Assembly: GCA_963717145.1 (NCBI GenBank)
Contig: OY970325.1
Coordinates: forward strand, 448,001 to 512,000
Direction: 5' to 3'
Source of the DNA: an uncultured Armatimonadetes bacterium
GTDB lineage: Bacteria > Armatimonadota > UBA5829 > DTJY01
Length of the DNA stretch: 64,000 nt
Below, in pieces: positions 4,853 through 40,799 of the stretch. A model generated the notes under the pieces. It saw only the letters and a program-made list of their open reading frames with translations. It was not told the origin of the DNA and ran no database searches. The first letter of the stretch is position 1; every line of letters begins with the position of its first letter. The position numbers and the translations under genes were made by a program.

Positions 4853-4946
4853 CAAAAAAATAGCAGGTCCCGGGTCGTAGGATCCCACCGACCAGCGGCT
4901 GCCGCCCGTAAGGGCGACCTACGAGAGTCCCCGCGCATACCTGCAT
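4853..4946 (-). ncRNA. Putative DUF3800-associated structured small RNA (~90 nt), convergent with the gene
   Basis: Nested stems GCAGGT/ACCTGC and TCGTAGG/CCTACGA, hairpin GCCC-GTAA-GGGC, U7 tract at the minus-strand 3' end, promoter just upstream. Confidence 0.65.
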
Positions 4947-5547: not shown

Positions 5548-5688
5548 GAGCGATGGGGGTATCCTCGGGGGGGTTGCACTTCCTCCTGCGTGCCCGAACC
5601 CAAGCAGGAAAGCATCCTCTCAGTATATAATCCATATAAGAGCAAGGAACACAGATGCGAGTTACCCCACCGCCCAGAGGAGCCGCTC

Positions 5689-7980
5689 ATGCCAATACTG
5701 ACCGAACAGGAACAGCAGGAAGTCATCCGCTACATCGAGGCCGGGAAGCCCCTGCCGGATAAGTACCGCTTCCTGCTGTTCGAGGAGAAGCGCGAGGTCG
5801 AACTCGTCTGGAACGGGAAGACCGGCGAGGTTACCAACGTTGTCCTGCCGTTTCAGGTGATCGAGCAGGTAGATGAACCCCGCGCTGAGAAGCCGGAGGA
5901 TACCTCCCTCCAACTCGGCATGTTCGACACTCGCGGTCGGCAGAAGAAGGGCTGGACCAACAAGCTTATCTGGGGCGACAACAAGCTGATCCTCTCCAGC
6001 CTGAAGAACGGTCCCCTGCGCGAGGAGATCGAGAAGCAGGGCGGACTCAAGCTGATCTACATCGACCCGCCGTTCGACGTAGGCGCGGACTTCTCGATGG
6101 ATATCGAGATCGGCGGCGACACCTTCACCAAGAAGCCGAACATCCTGGAGGAGATCGCCTACCGTGATACTTGGGGCAAGGGCGCGGATTCCTTCATCGC
6201 CATGATCTATGAGCGGCTCATGCTCATGCGCGATCTCTTGGCGGACGATGGAAGCATCTACGTGCACTGCGATTGGCGAGTGAATAGTCACATGAGATTT
6301 GTGCTCGATGAGATATTTGGGACAGATACCCAGATAAACGAGCTTATCTGGCAACGATCGAACCCTCACAACGATACAAAGCGGTATGGATGCATTCATG
6401 ACACCATCTTTGTGTATTCCAGGAGTGCGGATTACATCTTCCAGACTCAGTTCACTCCTCCTTCGGAGTCATACATCCGGAGTCACTTCACCCAAGAAGA
6501 CGAAGCTGGGCGGAAGTATACGCTCATGCCTCTGATGGCTAGTGGATCCGGACCAGCAAGACGTTTTGGAGACAAGACGTTGACTCCGCCTCCGGGGACT
6601 CACTGGCGATGGACGCAAGAGCGAATCGACGATGCTATGAACAACGGCATCATTGTTTTCACGAGTGGCGGCACTCCAAGATACAAATTCTATGCGGATC
6701 AGTCTAAGGGAAGGCCCCTGCAGTCAGTATGGAGTGATCTAGTTCCTATCAACTCCCAATCGGCAGAAAGATTGGACTACCCCACGCAGAAACCGGAAAC
6801 TCTGCTGGATCGGATCATCAGAGCATCGTCCAACGAGGGCGATCTTGTGGCCGACTTCTTCTGCGGGTCCGGCACTACCGCCGCTGTTGCCGAAAAGCTC
6901 GGGCGGAAGTGGATCGTCACCGACCTCGGCAAGTTCGCCATCCACACGACCCGTAAGCGGATGATCGGCGTTCAGCGCGAACTCAAGAAGGATGGCAAGG
7001 ACTACCGGGCGTTCGAAATCCTCAACCTCGGCAAGTACGAGCGCCAGCACTACATCGGCGTGAACCCCAACCTGCGTGAGGCCGAGCAGCAGAAGCAACT
7101 GGAGGAGAAGGAAGCCGCCTTCCTCGACCTGATTCTCCGCGCCTACCGCGCTGAGAAGATCGACGGATTCAACACCTTCCACGGCAAGAAGGCCGGGCGG
7201 CTCGTGGCGGTCGGCCCGGTGAACCTTCCCGTGACCCGCCTCTTCGTCGAAGAGGTCATCCTGGAGTGCCGCCAGAAGCACATCACCCGCGTGGACATCC
7301 TCAGCTTCGAGTTCGAGATGGGACTCTTCCCGAATGTCCTGGATGAGGCCCGCGCGAAGGGGATAGACATCGCCCCGAAGTATATCCCCGCCGAGGTATT
7401 CGACAAGCGCGCCGTCGAGAAGAACCAGGTCGTGTTCCATGACGTCTCCTTCATCGAAGTTACACCCCATGTGAAGGGAAACACTGTCGCGGTGGAACTG
7501 ACTGATTTCTCCGTGTTCTACTCCCAGGACTCCATCGCCAACGCAGAGGCGACGATCAAGGACAAGAGCAGCAGGATCGTGGTCGAGAAGGGGCAGATCG
7601 TCAAGGTAAGCAAGGACAAGGACGGCATCGTCACCCGCGAAGTCCTCACCAAGGAATGGACCGACTGGATTGACTACTGGGCGGTGGACTTCCAGTTCGA
7701 GAGCAAGCGGGAGATCATCCGCCGAAAGCTGATACCGGCGGAACAGGAGTCGCTCGACGGACTCGAACCGCCGCAGATGGACCTGGCGCAATACGAGGAA
7801 GTCTGGACCGGCGACTACATCTTCGAGAACGAGTGGCAGTCGTTCCGCACGAAGAAGGACCGATCACTGGAACTGACGAGCGTCTACCACGAGTGCACGA
7901 AGGGACGGCGGAAGGTGGCAGTCAAGGTCGTAGATATCTTCGGCAACGACACGATGACGATTGTGGAAGTCAGCGTCTAG
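5689..7980 (+). CDS. mod: Type III restriction-modification methyltransferase subunit
   Basis: LIYIDPPF catalytic motif, YPTQKPE, DFFCGSGTT (beta-class order), C-terminal VKVVDIFGND; upstream of a Res gene. Confidence 0.92.
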   Translation: MPILTEQEQQEVIRYIEAGKPLPDKYRFLLFEEKREVELVWNGKTGEVTNVVLPFQVIEQVDEPRAEKPEDTSLQLGMFDTRGRQKKGWTNKLIWGDNKLILSSLKNGPLREEIEKQGGLKLIYIDPPFDVGADFSMDIEIGGDTFTKKPNILEEIAYRDTWGKGADSFIAMIYERLMLMRDLLADDGSIYVHCDWRVNSHMRFVLDEIFGTDTQINELIWQRSNPHNDTKRYGCIHDTIFVYSRSADYIFQTQFTPPSESYIRSHFTQEDEAGRKYTLMPLMASGSGPARRFGDKTLTPPPGTHWRWTQERIDDAMNNGIIVFTSGGTPRYKFYADQSKGRPLQSVWSDLVPINSQSAERLDYPTQKPETLLDRIIRASSNEGDLVADFFCGSGTTAAVAEKLGRKWIVTDLGKFAIHTTRKRMIGVQRELKKDGKDYRAFEILNLGKYERQHYIGVNPNLREAEQQKQLEEKEAAFLDLILRAYRAEKIDGFNTFHGKKAGRLVAVGPVNLPVTRLFVEEVILECRQKHITRVDILSFEFEMGLFPNVLDEARAKGIDIAPKYIPAEVFDKRAVEKNQVVFHDVSFIEVTPHVKGNTVAVELTDFSVFYSQDSIANAEATIKDKSSRIVVEKGQIVKVSKDKDGIVTREVLTKEWTDWIDYWAVDFQFESKREIIRRKLIPAEQESLDGLEPPQMDLAQYEEVWTGDYIFENEWQSFRTKKDRSLELTSVYHECTKGRRKVAVKVVDIFGNDTMTIVEVSV

Positions 7981-8063: not shown

Positions 8064-8878
8064 GTGGCGGAGAAGATACAGGTTCAAGGAACAGAGATAA
8101 CGGTCATATCGCATCCACAGGGGGACTACATATCCCTGACGGATATGTTGAAGGCGAAAGACGGCGATTTCTTCATCTCGGACTGGTTGAGGAATCGCAA
8201 CACGGTCGAGTTTCTTGGCATCTGGGAGAGCGTCCACAACCCGAACTTCAATTATGGCGAATTCGCCGCAATTAGAAGTCAGGCAGGCCTTAACAGCTAC
8301 AAGATCAGCGTCAAGGAGTGGGTTAGCAGGACGCATGCCATAGGCCTGAAAGCAACCGCCGGAAGATATGGAGGCACCTACGCCCACAGGGATATCGCCT
8401 TTGAATTCGGCATGTGGATCAGTCCGGAATTCAAGATCTACCTGATCAAGGAGTTCCAACGGCTCAAGGACCAGGAGTTCAAGCAACTCGGATGGGACAT
8501 CCGCCGCAATCTCGTCAAGATCAACTACCGGATTCACACCGATGCCATCAAAGGGAATTTGATCCCGCCGGAACTCACCCGGCGGCAGATGGACTTGATA
8601 TACGCCTCCGAGGCGGATGTCCTGAACATGGCGCTCTTCGGTATGACGGCCAAGAAGTGGAGGGACAGCCATCCCGGCGAGAAGGGTAATATCCGAGACT
8701 ACGCGAACGTCTCGCAGCTTGTATGCCTCTCCAATCTCGAGAACCTGAACGCCCTCTTCATCAATGAGAAGATCCTCAGCCGGAACGGCTTCGCAAGTTG
8801 AACCAAATCGCGATTCAGCAGATGAAGATCCTATCGGAAGACTTCGGGATCAGGCAACTGGAGGCGGGGGACAAGTAA
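8064..8878 (+). CDS. KilA-N domain DNA-binding protein (frameshift near 8772)
   Basis: DYISLTD, WLRNRNTVEFLGIWE, GRYGGTYAHRDIAFEFGMW; one extra C at ~8772 gives ...PQPERLRKLNQIAIQQMKIL...DK* ending in TAATG overlap with res. Confidence 0.85.
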
Positions 8879-11547
8879 TGGCTCTGCACAAGGACTTTCC
8901 GGAATCACCTCACGCGATACTCGATCCGGCGATCCGCTGGTTCCCGGCAGACGAAGCTCTGCGCGAGAGCAGCATGGACAAGCTGCTGCCTCCTCTCGTC
9001 CCGGAACTTCGGAAGAAGGTGAAGGCCTGGAGAGAGAGCGGCTACGACAAGGCTACGGAGACAAGCCGCTCTTTGCTCAACTGGTGGTTCAAGACGCCGC
9101 ACCTTCTGCCCAAGTCCGACGGCACGATGGCCGAGTTCCAGTACTACTTCGCCCAGCGGGAAGCGCTGGAGACGATCATCTTTCTCTACGATGTTGTCGG
9201 AGTCAAAGACAAGTACGACATGATGCGCTTCGACGGCTCCGGCTTCGTATCCACCGGCATGTTCGACGAGGACTGGCGGCGCTTTGTCGTCAAGATGGCA
9301 ACCGGGGCGGGGAAGACCAAAGTGTTGAGCCTGGTCTTGGCGTGGAGCTTCTACCATAAGCTCTACGAGCCGGAGTCGGAACTGGCACGCAACTTCCTGG
9401 TGATCGCTCCAAATATCATAGTCCTCGATCGCATCTACAAGGACTTCAAGGGCCTGCGCATCTTCTTTGAGGATCCGGTGATACCGGATAACGGCATTGA
9501 CGGTCGCAACTGGCGTGATGACTTCCAGCTTACTCTGCACCTGCAGGACGATGTCCGCATCACTCATCCCACAGGTAACATATTCCTGACGAACATCCAT
9601 CGGGTCTATGCCGGTGATGACATTCCCCCTTCGCCCGAAGATGACAACACGATGGACTTCTTCCTGGGAAAGCGTCCGAGCGGCGCAACCACCGATTCCA
9701 AGGTCGATCTCGGGATGATCGTGCGGGATATCGATGAACTCGTTGTACTTAACGATGAGGCTCACCATATCCACGATCCGCGCATGGCCTGGTTCAAGTC
9801 CATTCAGGATATCCACAACCGCCTCAAGCAGAAGGGGGATGTGCTATCACTTCAGGTGGATGTCACCGCTACCCCAAGACACAACGATGGTGGGATCTTC
9901 GTGCAAACGGTCGCCGACTACCCCCTTGTCGAGGCGATCTGCCAGAACGTAGTCAAGCATCCTGTCCTTCCCGATGCACCGAGTCGTGCGAAGCTGCAGG
10001 AACGGCAGAGCCCCAGGTACACGGAGAAGTATGCCGACTACATAAACCTGGGCGTGACGGAATGGCGCAAGGCATATACCGAGCATGAGAAGATGGGCAA
10101 GAAGGCGATCCTGTTCGTCATGACCGACGACACCAAGAACTGCGATGATGTCGCGAAGTACCTGGAAGACACCTATGCCGATTTGAAAGGCGCAGTGCTG
10201 GTGATCCACACCAAAGACAATGGCGAGATCTCGGAGAGGAAGAAAGAGGACCTCGAAGTACTGCGCAAGCAGGCTAACGATATTGATGGAGAAGACAGTC
10301 CCTTTAAAGCCATCATCTCGGTTATGATGCTCAAAGAAGGATGGGACGTGCGCAATGTCACTACCATAGTCGGACTTCGGCCATACTCGGCGAAGAGCAA
10401 CATCCTCCCGGAGCAGACTCTTGGGAGGGGACTACGCCGCATGTATCCGGAGCAGTCCGTTCCCGAATTGGTTAGCGTCGTGGGTACGGACGCATTCATG
10501 GATTTCGTCGAGTCGATCCAGGCGGAAGGCGTCGTGCTCGAACGCCGGGCAATGGGCCAGGACACGGGCGCCATCACTCCCCTGGTCATCGAAGTGGACC
10601 AGGACAACGTGAAGAAGGATATCGATCAACTGGATATCGAGATTCCCGTGCTGAGTCCGCGAGTCTACCGTGAGTACAAGAACCTGAGCCAGCTAGATGA
10701 GACTGCCCTGGGTCATACCAAAGTGACCTACCGGCAGTTCAGCGAAGAGGAACAGCGGGAGATAGTCTTCCGGGACATCACGACCGGCGAGATCACACAC
10801 ACCACCATTCTCGATACGGCGGGCGTCGCGGACTATCGAAGCGTCATCGGCTACTTCGCTCAGACCATCATGAAGGACTTGCGCCTCGTCAGCGGCTATG
10901 ACGTTCTCTACGGCAAGGTCAAGGCCTTTGCTCAGGACCAGTTGTTTGACCAGCCGGTGGACCTTGAGACTCCGAACACCCTTCGCAACCTCTCCGAAGT
11001 ACCTGCGACGCGGACGCTGATCGAAACCTTCAAGAAGGCGATCAACGAGTTGACTATCCAGCAGAAAGGCGACGCTGAGATCAGGGATCACATCAAGTTG
11101 CGGGAGACTCGTCCCTTCGTGGTGAAGGAACAGGGGTACCTGATTCCGAGGAAGAGCATCTTCAACAAGATCATAGGCGACAGCGGCCTCGAACTCCTAT
11201 TCGCGGGTTTCCTGGACGACTGCGAAGACATCATCTCCTACGCCAAGAACTACCTGGCTGTGCGCTTCAAGCTGGACTATGTGAACGCCAACGGCGACAT
11301 CTCCAACTACTATCCCGATTTCCTGGTCAAGGCATCGGACCGCGAGGTCTTCATCGTGGAGACGAAGGGCCAGGAAGACCTCGATGTCCCGCTCAAGATG
11401 GAGCGGCTCAGGCAGTGGTGCGCGGATATCAACCATATCCAATCGGATGTTGTCTACGGTTACGTTTACGTTGACGAGGAAGGCTTCGAGAAGTATCGGC
11501 CCACGTCATTCCGGCAGCTGGTTGATGCGTTCCACGAGTACAAGTAG
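8878..11547 (+). CDS. res: Type III restriction endonuclease subunit (SF2 helicase-like ATPase + PD-(D/E)xK nuclease)
   Basis: KMATGAGKT Walker A, NDEAHH, LKEGWDV, QTLGRGLR, YYPDF...IVETKG. Confidence 0.92.
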   Translation: MALHKDFPESPHAILDPAIRWFPADEALRESSMDKLLPPLVPELRKKVKAWRESGYDKATETSRSLLNWWFKTPHLLPKSDGTMAEFQYYFAQREALETIIFLYDVVGVKDKYDMMRFDGSGFVSTGMFDEDWRRFVVKMATGAGKTKVLSLVLAWSFYHKLYEPESELARNFLVIAPNIIVLDRIYKDFKGLRIFFEDPVIPDNGIDGRNWRDDFQLTLHLQDDVRITHPTGNIFLTNIHRVYAGDDIPPSPEDDNTMDFFLGKRPSGATTDSKVDLGMIVRDIDELVVLNDEAHHIHDPRMAWFKSIQDIHNRLKQKGDVLSLQVDVTATPRHNDGGIFVQTVADYPLVEAICQNVVKHPVLPDAPSRAKLQERQSPRYTEKYADYINLGVTEWRKAYTEHEKMGKKAILFVMTDDTKNCDDVAKYLEDTYADLKGAVLVIHTKDNGEISERKKEDLEVLRKQANDIDGEDSPFKAIISVMMLKEGWDVRNVTTIVGLRPYSAKSNILPEQTLGRGLRRMYPEQSVPELVSVVGTDAFMDFVESIQAEGVVLERRAMGQDTGAITPLVIEVDQDNVKKDIDQLDIEIPVLSPRVYREYKNLSQLDETALGHTKVTYRQFSEEEQREIVFRDITTGEITHTTILDTAGVADYRSVIGYFAQTIMKDLRLVSGYDVLYGKVKAFAQDQLFDQPVDLETPNTLRNLSEVPATRTLIETFKKAINELTIQQKGDAEIRDHIKLRETRPFVVKEQGYLIPRKSIFNKIIGDSGLELLFAGFLDDCEDIISYAKNYLAVRFKLDYVNANGDISNYYPDFLVKASDREVFIVETKGQEDLDVPLKMERLRQWCADINHIQSDVVYGYVYVDEEGFEKYRPTSFRQLVDAFHEYK

Positions 11548-11595
11548 CCGACGTCGGATCGCCTCCCGGAGTCCAAGTCGGGCCTCAGGTGTATA

Positions 11596-11915
11596 GAAGT
11601 ATGACCTCCCGCTGTCAGCCGGAGACGATACTTCCATCGAAGTATGACCTCCGGGAGTCAGCCGGAGACGACTTGTCTATAGAAGTATGACCACCGGGAG
11701 TCAGCCGGAGACGATACTTCTATGGAAGTATGACCACCGGGAGTCAGCCGGAGACGACTTGTCAATAGAAGTATGACCACCGGGAGCTAGCCGGAGACGA
11801 CTTGTCTATAGAAGAATGACCACCGGGAGTCAGCCGGAGACGATACTTCTATGGAAGTATGACCACCGGGAGTCAGCCGGAGACGATACTTCTATGGAAG
11901 TATGACCACCGGGAG
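11596..11915. repeat. Tandem array A: ~7.4 copies of a 43-bp unit
   Basis: GAAGTATGAC starts at 11596, 11639, 11682, 11725, 11768, 11811, 11854, 11897; consensus GAAGTATGACCACCGGGAGTCAGCCGGAGACGA(TACTTC/CTTGTC)TAT(G/A). Confidence 0.95.
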
Positions 11916-12054: not shown

Positions 12055-12273
12055 TGAATCGGCGGCTAATCTGTACCACAAGCCGCCGGGTTTTTGACCG
12101 ATCTGTGGGAAACCTCGCCAACCCTTCGTGTGGGAGTATGGGAGTGTGAGAGTGTGGGAGCATGGGAGTATGGGAGTGCGGGCGATCCGCGCTCCCACAC
12201 GCCCAGACTCCCACACGAAGGGTTTGGGGACGTCTCCGGGGCGGCTCGGTCACTTGAATGGAGGAAACTAGTT

Positions 12274-12951
12274 ATGGGTGATTGGATCCCCACTAAGGAC
12301 CTGGAACTCCAGGTATGGATGGACACGTTCCTGACCTACCTGAGCACGAATCTGGCGCACTTCGGGCTGGTGGCGGCGGATGTCCTCGATCTGACGGCTG
12401 CCTCGCCGGAGTTCAGCCAGGCGAGGGTTGCGGCGGAAGATGCCCGAATCGTGTATAAGGGCCTGGTTTCGGATAAGGGCGCCAAGCGCGATGCTCTCGT
12501 GGACCTGCTCAGGCCGATGGTCGCGCGGCTCCAGACCTTCCCCGCTACGACGAACCAGGACCGCGATTCGCTCGGGATTCCGAGACGCGGCGGGACATCC
12601 GCTGTCCCGCAGGCCATCGAACTGCTCCCGGACAGGCCGGTCGCAGGTATAAACATCGGCACGATCCGGAGGCATACGCTCCGCATCCAGAACGACATCG
12701 ATGGTACCATCACATCGGGCAAGCCCGAGGGCGTGAAAGCGGTCGAGGTCTGGGTGAAGGTCGGGGAAGCGCCGACGGGAGAGCCAGAGACGGACATGCG
12801 GTATGTGAACATGTCGACCAAGAATACGCTGGCGGTGGCGTTCGCGCCGGAGGATGGAAACAAGCAGGCGCATTACAAGATGCGCTGGATCTATAACGGC
12901 GGTCAGAAGGGCGGCTGGTCCGAGCTCCAGAGCGCGACGATCGCGGCCTAG
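12274..12951 (+). CDS. Uncharacterised protein (predicted helical N-terminus + FN3/Ig-like C-terminus), paralog 1
   Basis: GGAGG RBS; aligns over its full length with 33194..33856 (AHFGLV, DRDSLGI/DREALGI, MRW, WSE, ATIAA). Confidence 0.85.
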   Translation: MGDWIPTKDLELQVWMDTFLTYLSTNLAHFGLVAADVLDLTAASPEFSQARVAAEDARIVYKGLVSDKGAKRDALVDLLRPMVARLQTFPATTNQDRDSLGIPRRGGTSAVPQAIELLPDRPVAGINIGTIRRHTLRIQNDIDGTITSGKPEGVKAVEVWVKVGEAPTGEPETDMRYVNMSTKNTLAVAFAPEDGNKQAHYKMRWIYNGGQKGGWSELQSATIAA

Positions 12952-13105
12952 GGGAATGGTTGATGGTTGATGCCGGAGACCGGATGCCGGACGCCGGACA
13001 TGGCTGATGGCTGATGGTTGATGGCTGATGCCGGAGACCGGATACCGGAAATGGTTGATGGTTGATGGCTGATGGTTGATGCCGGAGACCGGATGCCGGA
13101 TGCCA
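12952..13105. repeat. Heptamer-repeat trailer (TGGTTGA/TGGCTGA and GCCGGAT/ACCGGAT)
   Basis: Direct reading; a closely similar trailer follows paralog 2 on the minus strand (33095-33193). Confidence 0.85.
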
Positions 13106-13146: not shown

Positions 13147-13176
13147 GGGGCGGGGGATGATTCCCCCGCCCCTTTT
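13147..13176 (+). terminator. Rho-independent terminator
   Basis: GGGGCGGGGGA-tgat-TCCCCCGCCCC-TTTT. Confidence 0.7.
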
Positions 13177-33014: not shown

Positions 33015-33094
33015 CACGAAAAGAAGGGCGGAGCACCCATGCGCCCCGCCCCTGTTCGGAATGGTTAATGAGGGATGGTTCATGGTTAATGTGG

Positions 33095-33193
33095 GGCCGG
33101 TCTCCCGTCAACCATCTCCGGTATCCGGTCTCCGGCATCAACCATTCCCGATATCCGGCATCAACCATCAGCCATCAACCATCAACCATTCCC
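33095..33193. repeat. Heptamer-repeat trailer of paralog 2
   Basis: Minus strand reads GGGAATGGTTGATGGTTGATGGCTGATGGTTGATGCCGG..., matching the trailer of paralog 1. Confidence 0.8.
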
Positions 33194-33856
33194 TTATGCC
33201 GCTATCGTCGCCGCCTCGGTCTCGCTCCAGTTGCCGATCTGACCCTCGCGGTTCACCCAGCGAAGCATGTAGTACACCGTCTTCCCCGCATCATCAGGAG
33301 CATACTCCAGGCTGAACGGGCTCTTGTACGCCACCGCCGCAAGCTCGCCATCGCCCGCGCCGGAGGGCAGTGTGCCGACCGTGCGCCAGATCTCGCAGCC
33401 GATCGCACCGACCGGCCTGCTTCGGCTCACCGTCGAGCCGTTCGTGTTCCGAATGCGGATCACGTGCTTCAGGCGGGCGTTCACATCGATCAGTCCGAGC
33501 GGCTTGTCCACACTCGCTCCCGCCGGCACCTGCGGCGCGGCAGTCTTGATCCCGAGCGCCTCGCGGTCGGCATCAGTCGTGTTCGGGCTGGCATTGATCT
33601 TCTTCACCAGCGCACGGATGACGGTGTCGAACGCCTTGCGCTCCTCATTCTTCGCCGAGCAGTAGCTCTGCGCCGTTGCCTGAGCGGTGTAGTGCTGCGC
33701 CAGGAGGGTGTCCCACTCCGGATGATGGTCCGCGAACGGCACCAGATCACCCACGACCAGTCCGAAGTGCGCGATGTTCGGCTCCAGATAAGCGATAAAC
33801 GTGTCGGCCCAGGCGGTGAAGTCAGCATCCTTGGCCGGCATATAATTGTTACTCAT
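33194..33856 (-). CDS. Uncharacterised protein (predicted helical N-terminus + FN3/Ig-like C-terminus), paralog 2
   Basis: Full-length similarity to 12274..12951; GAAGGA RBS-like sequence upstream. Confidence 0.85.
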   Translation of the reverse strand: MSNNYMPAKDADFTAWADTFIAYLEPNIAHFGLVVGDLVPFADHHPEWDTLLAQHYTAQATAQSYCSAKNEERKAFDTVIRALVKKINASPNTTDADREALGIKTAAPQVPAGASVDKPLGLIDVNARLKHVIRIRNTNGSTVSRSRPVGAIGCEIWRTVGTLPSGAGDGELAAVAYKSPFSLEYAPDDAGKTVYYMLRWVNREGQIGNWSETEAATIAA

Positions 33857-34162
33857 TGTCTTTTGGTTCCTTCCATCAGAAATGATCCGGATTCAGCGGA
33901 AGGACACCGCGACGAACAGCCGGTGGATGGCCCAAGGTCCGGCATGAACCATGAACCATTCCCCATGCCCCATGAACCATCATCCATCAACCATTCCCCG
34001 CATCCCTTCCCGAATTCCGGTTGCAGCCGGTCGCGATAAGATCACCGCCCCGGCCACCATTCACAGCCCACGGCCGATCGTCAACCATGCACTGTTCACT
34101 GCTCACTGTTCACCTGTCCGCGATCACCCCTTCGTCAAGAGCCATATTTGATTACAACACCG

Positions 34163-34192
34163 ATTATCGGAAAACGGATTCTTTGACTATAG
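34163..34192 (-). promoter_or_regulatory. Sigma28/SigD-like promoter
   Basis: Minus strand CTATAG-N16-CCGATAAT. Confidence 0.5.
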
Positions 34193-34223
34193 GGCCAGAA
34201 CTAATCTTTTTTGCGCATGGCAG

Positions 34224-34540
34224 TAGGGGAATTTGGCCGTGGCGTTACTCAGTCAGGCGGGGGGGAATTTCGATTAGGCGACTGCTTTATTCAGTTTAGG
34301 CGGGGGGGAATTTCGATTAGGGCACTGCTTTATTCAGTTTAGGCGGGGGGGAATTTCGATTAGGGCACTGCTTTATTCAGTTTAGGCAGGGGGAATTTGG
34401 ATTAGGCCACTGCTTTATTCAGTTTAGGCGGGGGGGAATTTCGATTTGGCCACTGCTTTATTCAGTTTAGGCGGGGGGGAATTTCGATTTGGCCACTGCC
34501 TTATTCAGTTTAGGCAGGGGGGAATCTCGGTTTGGGCACG
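34224..34540. repeat. Tandem array B: ~7 copies of a 43-bp unit
   Basis: ACTGC starts at 34281, 34324, 34367, 34409, 34452, 34495; consensus CACTGCTTTATTCAGTTTAGGCGGGGGGGAATTTCGATTAGG(G/C), degenerate at both ends. Confidence 0.95.
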
Positions 34541-34990
34541 GGGAAATATGAGCGTGGGCATCGGGAAATGGGCGTCCGGCGGGCGGAGAAAGACCACTCA
34601 GCGCCGGCCTGATCGAGCAGAGGTCGCGCCCCAGTCGAGCAACATCCCGGCCAAACCACAGCAGGGGTGGGGGATCATCGAACAAGGAAGCCCGACCCAT
34701 CGCCGTCCGCCTCGCCCCGACCAAACCCGCCGGCCTATGGAACTGAGGTCAGGAGCCGTGCAAGGCGAGGTGAATCCTATAGGGAAGACCCCGGCGGAAC
34801 CAAGAGGCGACTGTCCATCCTCCCTGTTACACTTGCATAGCCTGCAACTGGCAATAGGATTGGTCGCATGAAGGTTGTTGAGTCCCTTGCATCGAAAGGC
34901 TTTGCTATGGCATACTTGTGAGGATATGCCGTGAAGCTCGGACATGCGTTGATACTGCATGTCCTCGGTTCCGTGTTGTGCAGGTGCGAT

Positions 34991-37288
34991 ATGCCTAAGT
35001 TTACCGTAGACACACATCTTTTTCGAGAACTGGGCGAGCTTCTTGTCGGTCGTGATTCCACGGCTCTGGTTGAGCTCGTTAAGAACTCCTATGACGCCGA
35101 TGCCACCCATGTTCAGGTCTATGGCGAGAGTCTTGATACGCCCGAGAATGGCTTCATCATCATTCGCGATGATGGTGTTGGGATGAATTCCAGGCAGTTC
35201 GAGGAAGGATTCCTTCGTGTGGCGTCAAGGATCAAGAGCCATGGCGACCCAAGATCGCCTAGATTCGGGCGGCGATATACTGGCGCCAAAGGCATCGGCA
35301 GGCTGGCTGCTCATAAGCTCGCAAGATACATTGCCATAGAATCGTTTCCATGGACATCCACTGGCGACGATGCTGAACCCATCGATGCCAGAATTGACTG
35401 GGATATAGTTGAGGCGCACCAGAACTTGGACGAGCTGGAAGATTCAGATGCAATAACGCTGGCGCCCCGAGCCAGCGCCGAAGGCTCACAGCGCGGAACG
35501 ACGATCACTTTGTCCAGGCTTCGTCGTCGGTGGACATCTTCTGAGCGCTCACGATTCTTCACCGAGGTGACCAGTTTCACGCCACCTGAGCAACTTGTGA
35601 ACCTACCTGATGGTGTTACCGATGAGGATTTGCTCTTCCTTACACCACGGATATGTGACACCACCAGCAAGGATCCGGGTTTCACGGTTGAACTCCATGG
35701 TGAGCTACAGGCAGGTGAAGACTACTGGGTAGCCCTTGCCCAGACCGCAGACTGGCTCATCGAGATAGACGCTAGCCGCGATCATGATGGTGCTCCTGCA
35801 GGCGCATGCAAGGTACGATACAAGGTTACACCGACGAAGTTGACACGTAAAGACTTACGCAGTGCTCGGTCTCGTTTCTTTGAAATGGACCACCCTTCTG
35901 CTGACGACGGGCCATTCTTCCAAGCCCGAATCCTGATTCGCGAAGGTCATCTGGCGGAACAAGGACTCGACACCGGGTGGTTGACCAAATCCAATGGCGT
36001 TAGAGTCTTTATGGAAGGCTTCCGCGTACTACCGTACGGTGAGCCTGGCAATGACTGGTTGGAGATCGACCGAGGTTATTCACGACGGCAGAGGCAACTG
36101 GCATTCCTCAAGGATTTGCCTGTCGGGGTACCGATGGACGAGGATGAGGGACTGATGGCTCTGCGAAATGCCAACTATTTCGGGGCGGTGTTCCTCACTG
36201 AGGAAGACGCCCCTGGTCTTCAAATGCTGGTGAACCGCGAGGGCTTTATCCCCGAAGCCAGCTATGAGACATTGTGCACCCTGGTCCGCATCGGCATCGA
36301 TTTGTCGACGCGGGTAAGAGCCTACTTCGGTCGCGAGCATCGTGAGCTATGGAGATTGGAGCGAGAGATTCAGCCTGAGATCGAGGTCGAGCCCGTTCGT
36401 CGGCTGGAGCTTCGGGAGCAGATCGAGGCGTCGGTCAGAAGGGCAGCAGAGTTCGCGCAACAGGCTCGGATACAAGCAGCAGAAGGGGATTTTGGTTCAG
36501 CAATAGAGTATATCGACCAAGCCGCGGAGGAGTTCGCCTTGACGTCCGAGGCCTCCGAACGGCTGATGACCGAGCGGGCCCTGACGCAAGTTCTCGCTGC
36601 TGTTGGTCTGCAGATGGCGGCCTTCGTGCATGAGATCAATGCTCTGCTGGGAATGGCTAATACCTTGCAGGTTGCACTCGAAGCTATATCCAGGGACAGG
36701 GCGCTGCCTGCTTCTGCGAGGACTAGGATCGGACAGCTTGTGGGGTCGGTAGGGGACCTTCGACGGGCAATAGAGCGTCAGGCATCGTACCTAGTCGATG
36801 TTGTCTCCGCCGATGCTAGACGGCGACGGTCAAGGCAAAGAATGGCAGAGAGGTTTGACGCTAGTAGAAGACTCGTCCAAACTTCGGCGGACAGAAGGGG
36901 AATCGAGATTGTGAATGATATCCCGAGCGACTTCCGAACACCACCTATGTTCCCGGCTGAGGTCACCGTTATCTTTACCAACCTTCTGACCAATGCAGTC
37001 AAAGCCGCCGGTGATAACGGTCGAATCCATGCATCCGGCGTCAGAGATGGAGCCGTCCTGCGTATCCGGGTGGAGAACACTGGTGCGGCGGTACCCTCAT
37101 CGGAGGGCGAGAGGTGGTTCAGACCCCTTGAATCGACAACGACAGAGATAGATCCATTCTTGGGACAGGGAATGGGGATGGGTCTTCCGATCACCAGGAA
37201 TGTTCTGGCTGAATATGGGGCTACGGCCCGGTTTGTGGAACCGAGCCATGGCTATGCAACAGCAGTCGAACTCACCTTCAAGGAGTGA
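34991..37288 (+). CDS. GHKL (MORC/Hsp90-like) ATPase fused to a histidine kinase module
   Basis: N-terminal ELVKNSYDADA, DDGVGM, GAKGIGRLA; C-terminal FVHEIN H-box, NLLTNAVKA, ENTG, GMGMGL. Confidence 0.88.
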   Translation: MPKFTVDTHLFRELGELLVGRDSTALVELVKNSYDADATHVQVYGESLDTPENGFIIIRDDGVGMNSRQFEEGFLRVASRIKSHGDPRSPRFGRRYTGAKGIGRLAAHKLARYIAIESFPWTSTGDDAEPIDARIDWDIVEAHQNLDELEDSDAITLAPRASAEGSQRGTTITLSRLRRRWTSSERSRFFTEVTSFTPPEQLVNLPDGVTDEDLLFLTPRICDTTSKDPGFTVELHGELQAGEDYWVALAQTADWLIEIDASRDHDGAPAGACKVRYKVTPTKLTRKDLRSARSRFFEMDHPSADDGPFFQARILIREGHLAEQGLDTGWLTKSNGVRVFMEGFRVLPYGEPGNDWLEIDRGYSRRQRQLAFLKDLPVGVPMDEDEGLMALRNANYFGAVFLTEEDAPGLQMLVNREGFIPEASYETLCTLVRIGIDLSTRVRAYFGREHRELWRLEREIQPEIEVEPVRRLELREQIEASVRRAAEFAQQARIQAAEGDFGSAIEYIDQAAEEFALTSEASERLMTERALTQVLAAVGLQMAAFVHEINALLGMANTLQVALEAISRDRALPASARTRIGQLVGSVGDLRRAIERQASYLVDVVSADARRRRSRQRMAERFDASRRLVQTSADRRGIEIVNDIPSDFRTPPMFPAEVTVIFTNLLTNAVKAAGDNGRIHASGVRDGAVLRIRVENTGAAVPSSEGERWFRPLESTTTEIDPFLGQGMGMGLPITRNVLAEYGATARFVEPSHGYATAVELTFKE

Positions 37289-37294
37289 TCCCCA

Positions 37295-38437
37295 ATGCCA
37301 GCAACGAAGGTTCCGAGCATTCTCATCATTGATGACACCCTCTCGCAGGTGGAGGGGCTTGCTAATCTCATCAGAAGCGAGGGATTGGCGAAGGTGGTCA
37401 TATGTGATCCGGATGAGGTTAGCCGCCTTGACGTGTTGAGGGCTGACTTAGTGCTGATTGACTATGATATCGCAAAGTGGCGCAAGGGTATTGAGCCGGG
37501 TGAGATCATCAGTCAGCAGCCCGGGAATGGACTCGCGCTGGTTCCCGTCTTAAGAAGCCACATAAAGCGGAAGGTTCAGCCAACCGCCTACGCCATACTG
37601 ACCGGTAAGATGGACGAACTGGCCGATCCTCTCCCATCTGAGTATCGCAACCATGCGCTGGCCAGCATAAACAACCTGGAGTGGATCTTCGAGAAATCCT
37701 CCCCCGGAGACGAACCACGATTATACCAGCAGATCGCTGAACTGGCTGCTGCTGTCAGGAGGCTCCCGCGGGGATGGACGCCATATTCTGATCGAGGCTC
37801 TGCAGAGCAGTTGGCAGGATTACTGGGACTTAGCCTGGGTACCGACGAGTCTGACGAGCTCATGCAGGATGTTCTTCGCTGCCATCCTCCGCTCTATGAG
37901 CTGTCGGAATGGAGTCACGGTCTAACTATTCTGCGATGGTTGCTCCACAGGATCCTGCCTTATCCGTGTTTCCTACTGGATACCAACTACCTCGCTGCTC
38001 GCCTTAGACTGCAGCATGCCGGACTGGAGAGCGCACTTCAGGTCGGATGCCCGCTTCGAAAGGCTCTAGCCCCCTATGAATATGATGGCATCCTACCTAC
38101 GTTTCTGGGCGGTCGATGGTGGCGAATGGGGGTAGAGAGGTTTCTATGGAACAAAACTGGGGGTATGTCTTTCGACATAGCGAGTGTCCGCAGGTTGGTA
38201 AATGCCCTGGCAGGGGAGGAGCTTCCGCCCAGTACTCCAGATGATTTTCCTGTAGTCTGCATCGGCGCCAGATACGAGTCCATGAAGGAGTTCTGCTCAA
38301 TCGATGAAGCCGTGCGGATTCGCCCAGATGATTGGCCTGCGTACGCTGAGCAAGCATGGACGACTCTGGAGCTTGCGAACGAGGAAACGAAGCTGAAGGC
38401 CCTTGTCATCGAAGAAGATAGAGAGAGGCTTGGTTGA
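37295..38437 (+). CDS. Response-regulator receiver-like domain protein with unknown C-terminal domain
   Basis: ILIIDD, DLVLIDY, GNGLAL, AILTG; directly after the kinase. Confidence 0.75.
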   Translation: MPATKVPSILIIDDTLSQVEGLANLIRSEGLAKVVICDPDEVSRLDVLRADLVLIDYDIAKWRKGIEPGEIISQQPGNGLALVPVLRSHIKRKVQPTAYAILTGKMDELADPLPSEYRNHALASINNLEWIFEKSSPGDEPRLYQQIAELAAAVRRLPRGWTPYSDRGSAEQLAGLLGLSLGTDESDELMQDVLRCHPPLYELSEWSHGLTILRWLLHRILPYPCFLLDTNYLAARLRLQHAGLESALQVGCPLRKALAPYEYDGILPTFLGGRWWRMGVERFLWNKTGGMSFDIASVRRLVNALAGEELPPSTPDDFPVVCIGARYESMKEFCSIDEAVRIRPDDWPAYAEQAWTTLELANEETKLKALVIEEDRERLG

Positions 38438-39213
38438 TGCTAGTGGAACAGCCTTCTCCTCTTCAACTCAAGTTCTCGTTTTCGGGGATCAAGGACGAGA
38501 TCCAGACCATGAGGGAACTGGCCTCCAGATTCATCACCCCGCAGTCTGCTAGTGTACTTCGGGAGTGGCAGCAGCAACTCGAGGGTATCCAGGCAAACCG
38601 ACCCCAGAAGCCACAGCATTGGTGCATAAGCCCAGAACACCCCATAGAGACGATTCCGAGCCAGGGCCAATACGAACGTGGCGCAAGAAAGGCTGCGACT
38701 GTGCGAGGGGTTCTTACCGCGAAATGGACAGTTCTGGTGTCTCCCGTACAAGGCAAGAAGTCGCTGAAGCCAGAGAGGTTCCTCGTAGTGGGCATAGCCT
38801 CGACCAAGATCCAGATATACCATTCCGACGGGCGAGAACTGGCGAGGTGGCGCTTTGAGATAGGACTGGGCCCCAAAGCTCCAGGATGTCGTTTCCATAC
38901 ACAGGTACTGGGCGAGAATAGTGATACTGTGTTCCCTAAGCTTCTGCCCGTGCCACGTCTGCCGTCCATATTGGTGACTCCAATGGAGAGCTTGGATTTC
39001 TTACTAGGGGAGTTGTTCCAAGACGACTGGCATTTCCGGAGCACATCGGAAGCTGCTCGTATGGCAGCATGGGGTAACAGCCATCGCGAGCGGGTAAGAA
39101 GACTGCTGAACTGGCATCTTGATGCTGTCTGTGGCAGTTCAGGTAGCGCTTGGACAGCCATTAAGAAACATACTTTGAACCAGGACGCGCTTGTGGAGGG
39201 ATCGAATAAGTGA
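38437..39213 (+). CDS. Hypothetical protein in the kinase/methyltransferase operon
   Basis: TGATG overlap with the upstream gene and overlap with the downstream start. Confidence 0.75.
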   Translation: MLVEQPSPLQLKFSFSGIKDEIQTMRELASRFITPQSASVLREWQQQLEGIQANRPQKPQHWCISPEHPIETIPSQGQYERGARKAATVRGVLTAKWTVLVSPVQGKKSLKPERFLVVGIASTKIQIYHSDGRELARWRFEIGLGPKAPGCRFHTQVLGENSDTVFPKLLPVPRLPSILVTPMESLDFLLGELFQDDWHFRSTSEAARMAAWGNSHRERVRRLLNWHLDAVCGSSGSAWTAIKKHTLNQDALVEGSNK

Positions 39214-40799
39214 TCCTACCTACTCCACCTGAATCCTGTAAGGTCTACACACCTCCTGCACTGGCCGATGCCATAGTTCGTTCCCTAGGTGATGCTCCAG
39301 ACGCTAGATGGCTCGAGCCCAGCGCCGGAGGTGGTGTATTCGTGTCAGCGGTGTCCCAACTGGGAGTGGAGCGTAACCACATCTGTGCCATAGACATCGA
39401 CAAGTGCTGCGGTCCGCATGATGGTCTTGCCATCGTCTTTCGAGGGCAGGATTTCGTGAGATGGTCACTTGACACTACACAGCATTTCGACAGGATAGTC
39501 GGCAATCCCCCTTATATTCGCCTCTGTCGGCTCGAGGAGTCGCTGAAGAACGCGGCATTGCGTGTCACGGAGCCTGATGGCAGTCCTATGCATCTTGGCG
39601 TGAACTACTGGCATGTGTTTGTATGCGCGTGCCTTAAGATCCTCAATCCTGGCGGTTCTCTGGCATTGGTGCTTCCCGCGTCATGGGATTACGCTGACTA
39701 CTCTGCTCCTCTCAGGTGTACGTTGCCCAAGCTCTTCCGAAGCGTTGTAGTCCACAGAAGCTTGCGACCACTGTTCGGCACGGTTAGCGATGGATCAGTC
39801 GTCCTGATCGCCAAGGGATACAGAGAGCAGTCAGAACACTATGCTCGCCATGTGCATGCAGACTTGCCTGCTCTCATCAAGGCGCTTGAGGTGGGAGAAC
39901 ACGATCTGGTAAGTACTGGTTCGCAGACCGAGCAGGAAGATGCTGGTGAGGAGCTTGTCACCCTTGGCGACATCGCTGACATCGTGATCGGAGCCGTCAC
40001 GGGCGATGCGAAGTACTTTCTTCTGACGGAGCAACGGCGCTTGGAGCATAAGCTCCCGGAGAGTTGCTGCAAGCGGATTCTCACTCGTGCCCGCCAGCTT
40101 CGGGGCGGCGAGGTCTCCCTTGATGATTGGAGGCAGCTCAAGGACGGAGGACACCGAGTCTGGCTGTTTTCTCCACCGGACGATCTTCTGGCCAATGATG
40201 CGGTACATGCCTATCTTGAGTTGTCCACAGACAAGGAGGGACCCAACAAGGAAGCGTATTGGCTGCAGAAGCGTGATGAGTGGTATAGAGTTGAACTGCC
40301 ACTGGAGGCGCATGGATTCATGAGTGGGATGCGCAGTACCGGCCCCTGGATGTGTATGAACCGCTCACCCGAGCTTACAGCTTCCAACACGCTCTACATT
40401 GTCAGATTCCGAGAAGATATCACTGAGGGTGAGCGCTATGCCTGGGCCCTATCCATGCTTACGTCTCCAGTCGCCGCACAGTCGGCGCAATCCTGTCGGC
40501 TCTATGCCGATGGGTTGAGGAAGTTCGAGCCAAGCGACCTGAAGAGGCTGAGGTTGCCGAAGCCACTGCGCTCTGAGGGAGCTAGAGGGGCATATGTACA
40601 GGCGGTTTCCCATCTGCTGAGCGATGGGCCTGTTTGGGCACGAGAGATCGCGGATCAGTGGTTCGCCGTGCAAAGCCGCCTGAGTGATCTGGCTCTCTCT
40701 AGGGAAGCGCAGATGGACCGGGTTGCTGAATCAAAGGGCACCTACCAGACGAGACTGCACGAGGATGGCCCGGTCGTTGCGACGGATATTCGTTCCTAG
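39210..40799 (+). CDS. N6-adenine DNA methyltransferase (gamma class, Eco57I/TaqI-like)
   Basis: VYTP, LEPSAGGGVF (motif I) before IVGNPPY (motif IV); GAVTG; C-terminal GLRKFEPSDL. Confidence 0.88.
   Translation: MILPTPPESCKVYTPPALADAIVRSLGDAPDARWLEPSAGGGVFVSAVSQLGVERNHICAIDIDKCCGPHDGLAIVFRGQDFVRWSLDTTQHFDRIVGNPPYIRLCRLEESLKNAALRVTEPDGSPMHLGVNYWHVFVCACLKILNPGGSLALVLPASWDYADYSAPLRCTLPKLFRSVVVHRSLRPLFGTVSDGSVVLIAKGYREQSEHYARHVHADLPALIKALEVGEHDLVSTGSQTEQEDAGEELVTLGDIADIVIGAVTGDAKYFLLTEQRRLEHKLPESCCKRILTRARQLRGGEVSLDDWRQLKDGGHRVWLFSPPDDLLANDAVHAYLELSTDKEGPNKEAYWLQKRDEWYRVELPLEAHGFMSGMRSTGPWMCMNRSPELTASNTLYIVRFREDITEGERYAWALSMLTSPVAAQSAQSCRLYADGLRKFEPSDLKRLRLPKPLRSEGARGAYVQAVSHLLSDGPVWAREIADQWFAVQSRLSDLALSREAQMDRVAESKGTYQTRLHEDGPVVATDIRS

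Follow-up and report, generated by a model that had tools for sequence, protein, structure and literature searches.

Array B and its counterpart in the window

The window analyzed here is a stretch of 64,000 nt (contig OY970325.1, positions 448,001 to 512,000) from an uncultured Armatimonadetes bacterium whose genome measures 5.37 Mb, forms a single contig, and is 98% complete. At 33194..33856 on the minus strand of the window lies F01, a family gene encoding 220 aa plus stop, with a helical N-domain and a predicted FN3-like C-domain; a GGAAGG-type Shine-Dalgarno sequence was found upstream of it. Further upstream is a tandem repeat, array B, which is most likely a gene-control site of an undescribed kind and not a defence or mobile element. 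Tandem Repeats Finder (TRF) placed array B at 34255..34529 (minus strand), with a period of 43 bp, 6.4 copies, and 94% matches. Its units started at 34255, 34298, 34341, 34384, 34426, 34469, and 34512, giving spacings of 43, 43, 43, 42, 43, and 43 bp, and contained tracts of G5-G7. The initial annotation had described about seven copies of period 43, one unit of 42, and G-tracts, with which the TRF call and the unit list agreed; its estimate that the array begins about 370 bp upstream of the gene had to be corrected, the array lying 399-673 bp upstream of the F01 ATG. Each unit was a diverged dimer of 21- and 22-bp sub-units, each starting with AGGC on the plus strand, and the autocorrelation was 0.85 at lag 43 and 0.43 at lags 21 and 22 against a background of approximately 0.25. 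A degenerate gene-proximal unit (GGGGAATTTGG...CTCAGTC), absent from the TRF calls, was read from the sequence at about 34215..34254 on the minus strand.

F13, located at 12274..12951 on the plus strand (225 aa plus stop), is a paralogue of F01. Residues 4-220 of F01 aligned with residues 3-225 of F13 (32% identity, E 3e-46), so that the two are end-to-end paralogues as originally described, and the motifs AHFGLV, DRxxLGI, and RW...WSE...ATIAA were all found in them. The two modules had been said to face each other across about 20 kb, and the genes do converge, at a distance of 20.2 kb; the interval includes genes for a PEP-CTERM protein and a PD40 protein. Array A, at 11592..11915 on the plus strand, had a period of 43 bp and 7.5 copies by TRF and lay 359-682 bp upstream of F13; autocorrelation showed no 21-bp sub-period or half-period in it. 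The two arrays had been called unrelated, and no similarity between them was detected on either strand (the pair fell below score 16 in the pairwise array comparison). In both arrays the units abut head to tail, with no unique spacers between repeats of the kind that CRISPR arrays have. Rfam returned no match in either module. A coding explanation, in which 21 bp would be seven codons, was excluded by periods of 22, 41, 43, 44, and 85 bp; the period of arrays A and B themselves is 43 bp.

Arrays upstream of the family genes in the host genome

A protein search gave 25 paralogues in the host genome, and a six-frame open reading frame (ORF) profile search gave the same 25 at E<=1.5e-61, the next match being at E 0.7. 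All of these members, F01-F25, are intact and 215-227 aa long, and a GGAGG-type ribosome-binding site precedes nearly every one. F01-F15 form subfamily I, with the C-terminus ...ATIAA, and F16-F25 form subfamily II, which has a different tail, mostly ...AA(R)G....

Within 1000 bp upstream, TRF detected a tandem array at every family gene except F04. The arrays had periods of 21, 22, 24, 41-44, 63, 66, 84, or 85 bp and left 33-445 bp between their end and the ATG. When arrays with periods of 20-23, 40-45, 62-67, and 83-88 bp were counted, 24 of the 25 family genes had one within 800 bp upstream, compared with 67 of 3083 other called genes, a pattern far beyond chance. The same distance downstream gave 1/25 and 82/3083, respectively. 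The gene call underlying these numbers was crude (3107 ORFs of at least 120 aa with a third-position GC of at least 0.72, covering 71% of the genome and missing low-GC3 genes). Genome-wide, 133 array loci were counted; the 800-bp regions in front of the 25 family genes, 0.37% of the genome in all, contained 27 of them.

The sequence of the arrays was largely private to each gene. F07 and F08, which are 94% identical, were the sole family pair with a common array (score 120). The array similarity was 7 for F23/F24 (71% identical) and 12 for F16/F22 (68%), against a background with a median of 9 and a 95th percentile of 15; on this measure, an identity of 60-71% between paralogues brings no array similarity beyond the background. 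Of 24 array types, 21 were single-copy in the genome, and the types of F02, F09, and F13 were also present away from family genes. Of 60 units, 14 showed dyad symmetry above that of 95% of shuffles, against an expectation of about three.

The neighbors of the 25 genes were very diverse, ranging from pst/PhoU to glycosidases and RNase E/G, and the downstream neighbor was convergent at 16 of the 25 loci, indicating that the family genes are stand-alone units. No conserved partner gene, recombinase, integrase, transposase, or terminal repeat was found at the family loci.

Arrays in other genomes

At E<=1e-10, the family was present in 13 of 120 other genomes of the phylum. Among the 22 phylum loci outside the host, which come from 12 genomes and include some partial matches, 14 had an upstream array with a period of 21, 23, 42, 63, or 84 bp. 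The longest array belonged to one of these genomes (locus L039), in which 18 copies of the 21-bp unit CCCATTCAAAGAACAAACGGG occupied positions -489..-109 before the family gene.

A pattern scan with one genome per species yielded 79 loci, mainly from Phycisphaerae, other Planctomycetota, and Pyrinomonadaceae/Acidobacteriota. The 46 near-complete matches were kept; sequence of 500 bp or more was available upstream of 43 and downstream of 44 of them. In this sample, which was drawn from a 12-row alignment of closer sequences and is biased to one peptide pattern and mostly to Phycisphaerae, an array was detected in 30 of 43 upstream regions but in only 2 of 44 downstream regions. Among the 30 upstream arrays, the period that scored best was 21 bp at 21 loci, 42 bp at four, 63 bp at four, and 125 bp at one. 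The initial annotation had argued from the recurrence of the module that the array belongs functionally to the locus. This claim was strongly supported and could be generalized, given the arrays at 24/25 paralogues and 14/22 phylum loci and the upstream-downstream difference in the other phyla.

Closer relatives revealed what is conserved within an array. In Phycisphaerales, proteins starting with SGEHYMPRPD are 53-95% identical, and a core, TCGCG[TG][CG]CG[AC]C, lay upstream of the gene at seven of eight such loci; it was not found at the eighth (L125) or, in the forward direction, at nine loci with other N-termini. The core stood at -274, -253, -232, -211, -190, -148, -127, or -106, that is, in 21-bp steps and in one register to the start codon across genomes. 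One locus, L114, was untranslatable from its start estimate. Because repeat units were what first drew attention to the SGEHYMPRPD group, independent evidence comes from the protein signature and the register. These arrays aligned unit by unit in rows of 21, the differences between orthologous arrays of different genomes were whole 21-bp units, and one genome was offset by exactly one unit. The 10-bp spacers were kept between genomes and differed between units. The host was also compared with a genome from the same taxonomic family but a different genus: for three of five loci of that genome, the best upstream match in the host lay at the most similar paralogue (F19, F25, and F12, the last tied with F05), each such match having a chance of about 1 in 25. 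Array sequence, in short, is under constraint among orthologues but varies freely from paralogue to paralogue.

The protein family

No Pfam or NCBIfam model matched the family. A profile search of 1.84 billion cluster representatives returned 6675 at E<=1e-3, 3736 at 1e-10, and 589 at 1e-30. The nearest ESM Atlas clusters were unnamed and mainly from Bacteroidota and Planctomycetota according to the Atlas taxon labels, and the relatives were annotated as "hypothetical protein" or carried no name throughout. The family occurs at least in Planctomycetota and Acidobacteriota (from record titles), Bacteroidota (from Atlas labels), and the host lineage. A literature search, which left most subscription journals outside its reach, gave no description of the family or of such arrays. 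With 6675 cluster representatives at E<=1e-3, this is a very large family to stand without a curated model or a described function.

The AlphaFold2 model of F01 (pLDDT 91.8, pTM 0.51) has helices at residues 10-27, 35-89, and 95-101 and a beta-sandwich at 118-217. Model residues 112-220, the C-domain, matched FN3 domains with Z 11.5 and an rmsd of 2.3 A over 96 aligned residues (Foldseek E 4.4e-4), so that at the level of fold the predicted C-domain is a seven-strand beta-sandwich of FN3 topology; the Pfam fn3 model itself gave no match at E<=0.01. When folded alone, the N-domain reached pLDDT 92.3. Foldseek found no match to it at E<=0.001, and the best VIA Z was 6.1, with none reaching 8, so no fold was assigned.

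A homodimer was predicted through the N-domain, with an ipSAE of 0.71 compared with 0.00 for the best control. Of 30 proteins whose structures were solved as pairs of one chain, 20 reached this mark, as did 1 of 23 single-chain structures. At least 79% of contacts agreed between runs, and the partner pLDDT was at least 83. In the model, the contacts 62-62, 44-76, and 41-80 would place the 55-residue helices antiparallel. These predictions support pairing through the N-domain. The C-terminal ...AA was also considered as an ssrA-like degradation tag and rejected, as AA is the C-terminus of just 46 of 131 full-length relatives; what is conserved is AT(I/V) followed by two small residues.

Proposed function of the arrays

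We propose that array B is the cis-regulatory array of F01 and that array A would serve F13 likewise. Each array would be a row of binding sites spaced by two helix turns (about 21 bp; in array B, 21+22 = 43), a spacing that would leave all sites on the same side of the double helix. The binder would be a sequence-specific and probably dimeric protein, whose cooperative binding would switch the downstream gene's transcription; it may be an unlinked regulator or the gene's own product. With a different site sequence for every paralogue, control would be separate for each of the 25 genes. Cooperative protein binding on one DNA face is what the two-turn period, the conserved core with a free spacer, the common register, and the gain or loss of whole units jointly indicate. 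That the element acts as DNA, is bound by protein, and controls transcription we infer from these regularities. The proposal also draws on the recurrence of the arrays in this and other genomes, the excess of units with dyad symmetry, the self-contained nature of the loci, the second copy of the F02 array type in front of a radical-SAM gene, and the precedent of BvgA~P discussed below. On balance, we consider it probable that the stand-alone gene is controlled by a phased array of sequence-specific protein-binding sites, all on one face of the DNA.

Several observations weigh against this proposal. For a classical operator, the 360-400 bp that separate arrays A and B from the ATG are a long distance. 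No gene for a DNA-binding protein was linked to the family among the neighbors of the 25 loci, and the 24 different site sequences would require many specific binders. Dyad symmetry was not significant in 46 of the 60 units. The array A unit formed two further arrays with unrelated flanks (genome positions 546484-546997 and 1805382-1805668), one upstream of a GHL10 gene and the other between a Mrr-type nuclease gene and a convergent KdpD-like gene, and the latter copy, lying between convergent genes, precedes no gene. No RNA runs with this DNA were listed.

The position of promoter-like elements raises a further difficulty. Upstream of F01, motif scans found the palindrome CCGATAATCGG, enclosing a -10-like GATAAT, at 34160..34170 on the minus strand, 312 bp before the ATG, a candidate promoter element. 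F13 has the -10-like hexamers GACAAT and GCTAAT between array and ATG, and in subfamily I as a whole a hexamer of the type (G/C)ATAAT, GACAAT, or GCTAAT lay between array and ATG in 12 of 14 array-bearing genes. In subfamily II, a -10-like hexamer was located upstream of the array in 4 of 10 genes (F16, F22, F23, and F25), one of which also has a hexamer inside its array; in F21, the hexamer lay between array and ATG. Because the hexamer is downstream of the array in subfamily I and upstream of it in these four genes, the array does not occupy one fixed place relative to the putative promoter. The sequence GCCGATAAT occurred 55 times in the genome, seven times upstream of family genes, and may be a preferred extended -10 element or the site of a specific factor. 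The -10-like hexamers are putative promoters, and a scan for consensus sigma-70 promoters gave no match at the F01 or F13 locus.

Within the proposal of phased protein binding, the binder could be the product of the gene itself, which would make the family a new type of autoregulating DNA-binding protein. The antiparallel helical dimer would then space two FN3-like domains to read successive 21-bp units, each paralogue recognizing its own array. The loci do look like self-contained modules, with one gene, one paralogue-specific array, and no conserved neighbor; the predicted N-domain homodimer agrees with such a role; and the F02, F09, and F13 array types away from family genes are placed as the targets of a regulator would be. 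However, the protein has no recognizable DNA-binding domain and matches nothing in Pfam or NCBIfam, the best fold match of the N-domain is no better than that of common helical arrangements, and the C-domain has the ordinary FN3 fold, which usually binds proteins. Moreover, 18 of the 25 paralogues are acidic (pI <7), and a two-fold symmetric dimer would misfit head-to-tail repeats unless it had flexible linkers. We therefore regard an own-product binder as possible but unlikely. It is with equally little confidence that we would see in the family a new class of self-regulating, sequence-specific DNA-binding proteins, with a helical-bundle dimer as the ruler, FN3-like domains held about two turns apart, and 25 orthogonal switches. 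If the binder were the gene's own protein, the system would offer a new DNA-binding architecture together with a set of naturally orthogonal operator-regulator pairs, and some of the switches would also control other genes that bear a copy of the array.

Alternatively, the array could act by its shape or length, either through in-phase bends that curve the DNA or as a spacer of whole double turns that tunes expression in the manner of a rheostat or contingency locus. The period is the sole property common to all arrays, sequence turnover among paralogues is fast, orthologous arrays differ by whole 21-bp units, and most units (46/60) lack significant dyad symmetry, all of which would fit. Nevertheless, a 12-bp core is kept in orthologues that are 53-95% identical while the spacer varies, and the arrays of orthologues in another genus are still alike, arguing for a constraint on sequence and not on shape alone. 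We consider this explanation distinctly unlikely.

The array could also act as RNA, in a long 5' leader whose string of hairpins or protein-binding motifs would control stability or translation. This idea draws on subfamily II, where the -10-like GCCGATAAT lies upstream of the array in F16, F22, F25, and the F25 orthologue in another genus, the array of those genes extends to the ribosome-binding site, and several of the units can form hairpins of 5-8 bp. A strict 21-nt phase has no obvious meaning for an RNA, yet it equals two turns of DNA; in subfamily I, F01 and F13 included, the -10-like element is downstream of the array; and Rfam recognized neither module. An RNA function is likewise distinctly unlikely.

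A selfish or neutral satellite of the REP or STRR kind, accumulating in the long intergenic regions beside family genes, is very unlikely. The genome is repeat-rich (836 TRF rows at a score of at least 50, with REP-like arrays of 31-45 bp and heptamer and octamer repeats), array A exists in three copies with unrelated flanks, and short repeats are enriched after the stop codons of family genes (13/25 versus 241/3083). A satellite would hardly be so side-specific, however, with 24 of 25 genes having it upstream and one downstream, nor keep its association and period in other phyla, retain a core motif and register among orthologues, and yet be single-copy in 21 of 24 types.

That array and gene form a mobile or defence-related module beside defence loci, as the initial annotation suspected, is highly improbable: both window copies do adjoin restriction-modification-like loci, as it had observed, and strong PADLOC hits (E<=1e-20, ABC-ATPase false hits excluded) were present at 7/25 family loci versus 2/25 random loci (a random locus overlapping the F20 neighborhood excluded), but the defence-gene enrichment that it had proposed to score gave, at E<=1e-8 and with one ORF-calling pipeline, 12/25 family loci versus 8/25 random loci of equal size, which is not significant and a weak trend at most (pipeline ORFs alone were used for the family loci, one random locus overlaps the F20 neighborhood, and ABC-ATPase false hits occur in both sets), the neighbors are diverse, no integrase, transposase, terminal repeats, recombinase, or conserved partner gene was found, and the family protein itself matched no PADLOC family at E<=1e-8.

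For phased protein binding, array DNA used as bait would be a direct handle on the binder and on the function of the family. One stereotyped, readily recognized control element would be used across phyla, namely a tandem array with a fixed two-turn period and a sequence that is private to each paralogue and conserved among orthologues, and the family arrays would be a clean natural experiment on the evolution of cooperative, phased DNA recognition.

Comparison with known systems

The arrays share features with several described systems. At the fha and ptx promoters of Bordetella, the NarL/FixJ-type response regulator BvgA~P binds cooperatively, starting from an upstream nucleation site and reaching the -35 region, with up to six head-to-head dimers placed at 22-bp intervals along one helix face (PMC7250471). 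The likeness lies in several to six sites set two helical turns apart on one DNA face; the Bordetella sites, in contrast, are not tandem repeats of one unit, and one regulator serves all promoters. Our arrays consist of near-identical tandem units, up to 18 per array, with a sequence private to each paralogue; they share the two-turn period with the BvgA sites, and their ends, 33-445 bp before the ATG, are given above.

Sites of LytTR-family response regulators (AgrA, ComE, and PlnC/D) are 9-bp direct repeats with a 12-bp spacer, present in twos or threes. The arrays resemble them in having direct repeats, a conserved core of about 9-12 bp, a variable spacer, and a period of 21 bp. The LytTR domain (PF04397) gave no match in the host genome (98% complete), whereas the same search was positive in 5 of 14 control genomes.

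Plasmid iterons and the centromere or operator arrays of the ParR and omega type are head-to-tail repeats of about 20-22 bp bound cooperatively by the product of the adjacent gene, for which they are its own operator. Iteron and partition systems belong to plasmid replication and partition operons with Rep, ParA, or ParM, whereas here there are 25 chromosomal stand-alone genes; neither Rep nor ParA/ParM-ParR neighbors were found, nor was a ribbon-helix-helix or winged-helix domain found in the family.

The P2 C repressor is reported to be a symmetric dimer that reads non-palindromic direct repeats about two helical turns apart (PMC2995052, PMC1904263). It differs in having only two half-sites, in serving a phage immunity switch, and in being a helix-turn-helix protein. 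REP and BIME elements do not fit the arrays, in which significant dyad symmetry was present in 14/60 units alone and 21/24 types occur once. A promoter contingency locus would vary in repeat number among cells or strains; here, orthologous arrays of different genomes differ by whole units. STRR-type intergenic short tandem repeats resemble the GGAATGGTTGATGG heptamer tails of F01 and F13; those tails, unlike the 43-bp arrays, lie 3' of the gene instead of 5' and are also found at 7.8% of other called genes.

Arrays away from family genes

Apart from the further copies of array A, the array type of F02 recurred 123 bp upstream of a radical-SAM gene with its orientation to the gene conserved. 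A composite orphan locus was present at genome positions 546374..546997, where 22-bp units like those of F09 stand beside twelve 43-bp units like those of array A; the two paralogues concerned, F09 and F13, share 60% identity. Some ten further strong 21-bp arrays lie in front of unrelated genes, including YcxB-like, GH99-like, beta-helix, TIR-NB-ARC or symporter, MFS, and LarA genes. A wider regulon was considered and rejected: beyond the three exact recurrences, matches of 12-13 in 14 between orphan and family arrays were no commoner than in shuffles. The TACAC-N3-GTGTA likeness between the F24 array and the array at genome position 895089 was also within the expectation from shuffles.

Leaders and 3' ends of F01 and F13

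The presumed 5' leader of F01 contains a short tandem repeat of heptamers (CATGAAC/CATCAAC type) at 33943..33994 on the minus strand, as called by TRF. In a public sequencing run, a contig from a relative was approximately 93% identical over F01, and in it 164 bases upstream of the gene were replaced by 144 others; the contig ends at 34051. DNA contigs of this run contained 0.07 of the sampled words, and coverage of 34083..34538 was nil.

In the leader of F13, motif scans and direct reading revealed a hairpin, CGGCGGC-TAATCTGTACCACAA-GCCGCCG, followed by GGTTTTT, at 12060..12095 on the plus strand. The hairpin, with the T run after it, may be an attenuator. It is common to F13, F09, and F06 (the latter two copies at genome positions 2876625 and 5282771), with a conserved loop, TAATCTG(T/A)A(C/A)C..CAA, and stems that covary among the three (CGGCGGC/GCCGCCG, GGGCGGC/GCCGCCC, and ACGGC/GCCGT). 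Octamer repeats (TGGGAGTA) with an inverted partner (CTCCCACA) were called by TRF further along the F13 leader, at 12128..12216 on the plus strand.

Both genes had been reported to continue with common sequence after their stop codons, and this was borne out, as both continue with GGGAATGGTTGATGGTTGATG and contain GCCGGAGACCGGAT. By TRF and the downstream sequence, a tail of heptamer and GCCGGAGACCGGAT repeats occupies 33097..33189 on the minus strand directly after the F01 stop, in its 3' untranslated region, and 12956..13104 on the plus strand after the F13 stop. Each tail is followed by a GC-rich hairpin resembling an intrinsic terminator, one of 13 pairs before CTTTTCGT at 33024..33053 (minus strand, downstream of F01) and one of 11 pairs before TTTTCGT at 13147..13172 (plus strand, downstream of F13). 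Three or more GGAATGGTTGATGG heptamers in a row were found at 104 places in the genome, and repeats of 6-9-mers lay within 60 bp after the stop in 13 of the 25 family genes and in 241 of 3083 other called genes (7.8%). The heptamer tail is thus of the general short-repeat type of this genome, though enriched at the family. The GGGGAATGGTTGATGG heptamer type is common to seven family genes, and a terminator-like hairpin, GGGGCGGGG...CCCCGCCCC, usually follows the tail repeats of the family.

Neighboring genes in the window

A four-gene operon at 34931..40796 on the plus strand diverges from array B. It encodes a 785-aa protein with an N-terminal HATPase_c_3 domain like that of the restriction enzymes BbrUII and HgiDII and a C-terminal histidine-kinase ATPase, followed by proteins of 380 aa (with a weak receiver domain) and 259 aa (no family) and by a 529-aa Eco57I-like methyltransferase (PADLOC MTase_II 3.9e-49, weak mad2). 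Judging by its gene content, the operon is an unusual restriction-modification-like system with kinase parts. At 8412..8798 on the plus strand, within the ORF 8064..8801, the PADLOC candidate family PDC-S22 was matched at E 8.7e-61; this gene sits between a type III mod gene (5590..7980) and a res gene (8764..11547). Finally, Rfam gave a full-length match to DUF3800-VII RNA (RF02967) at 4857..4945 on the minus strand, with 85.3 bits compared with a gathering score of 36.2.

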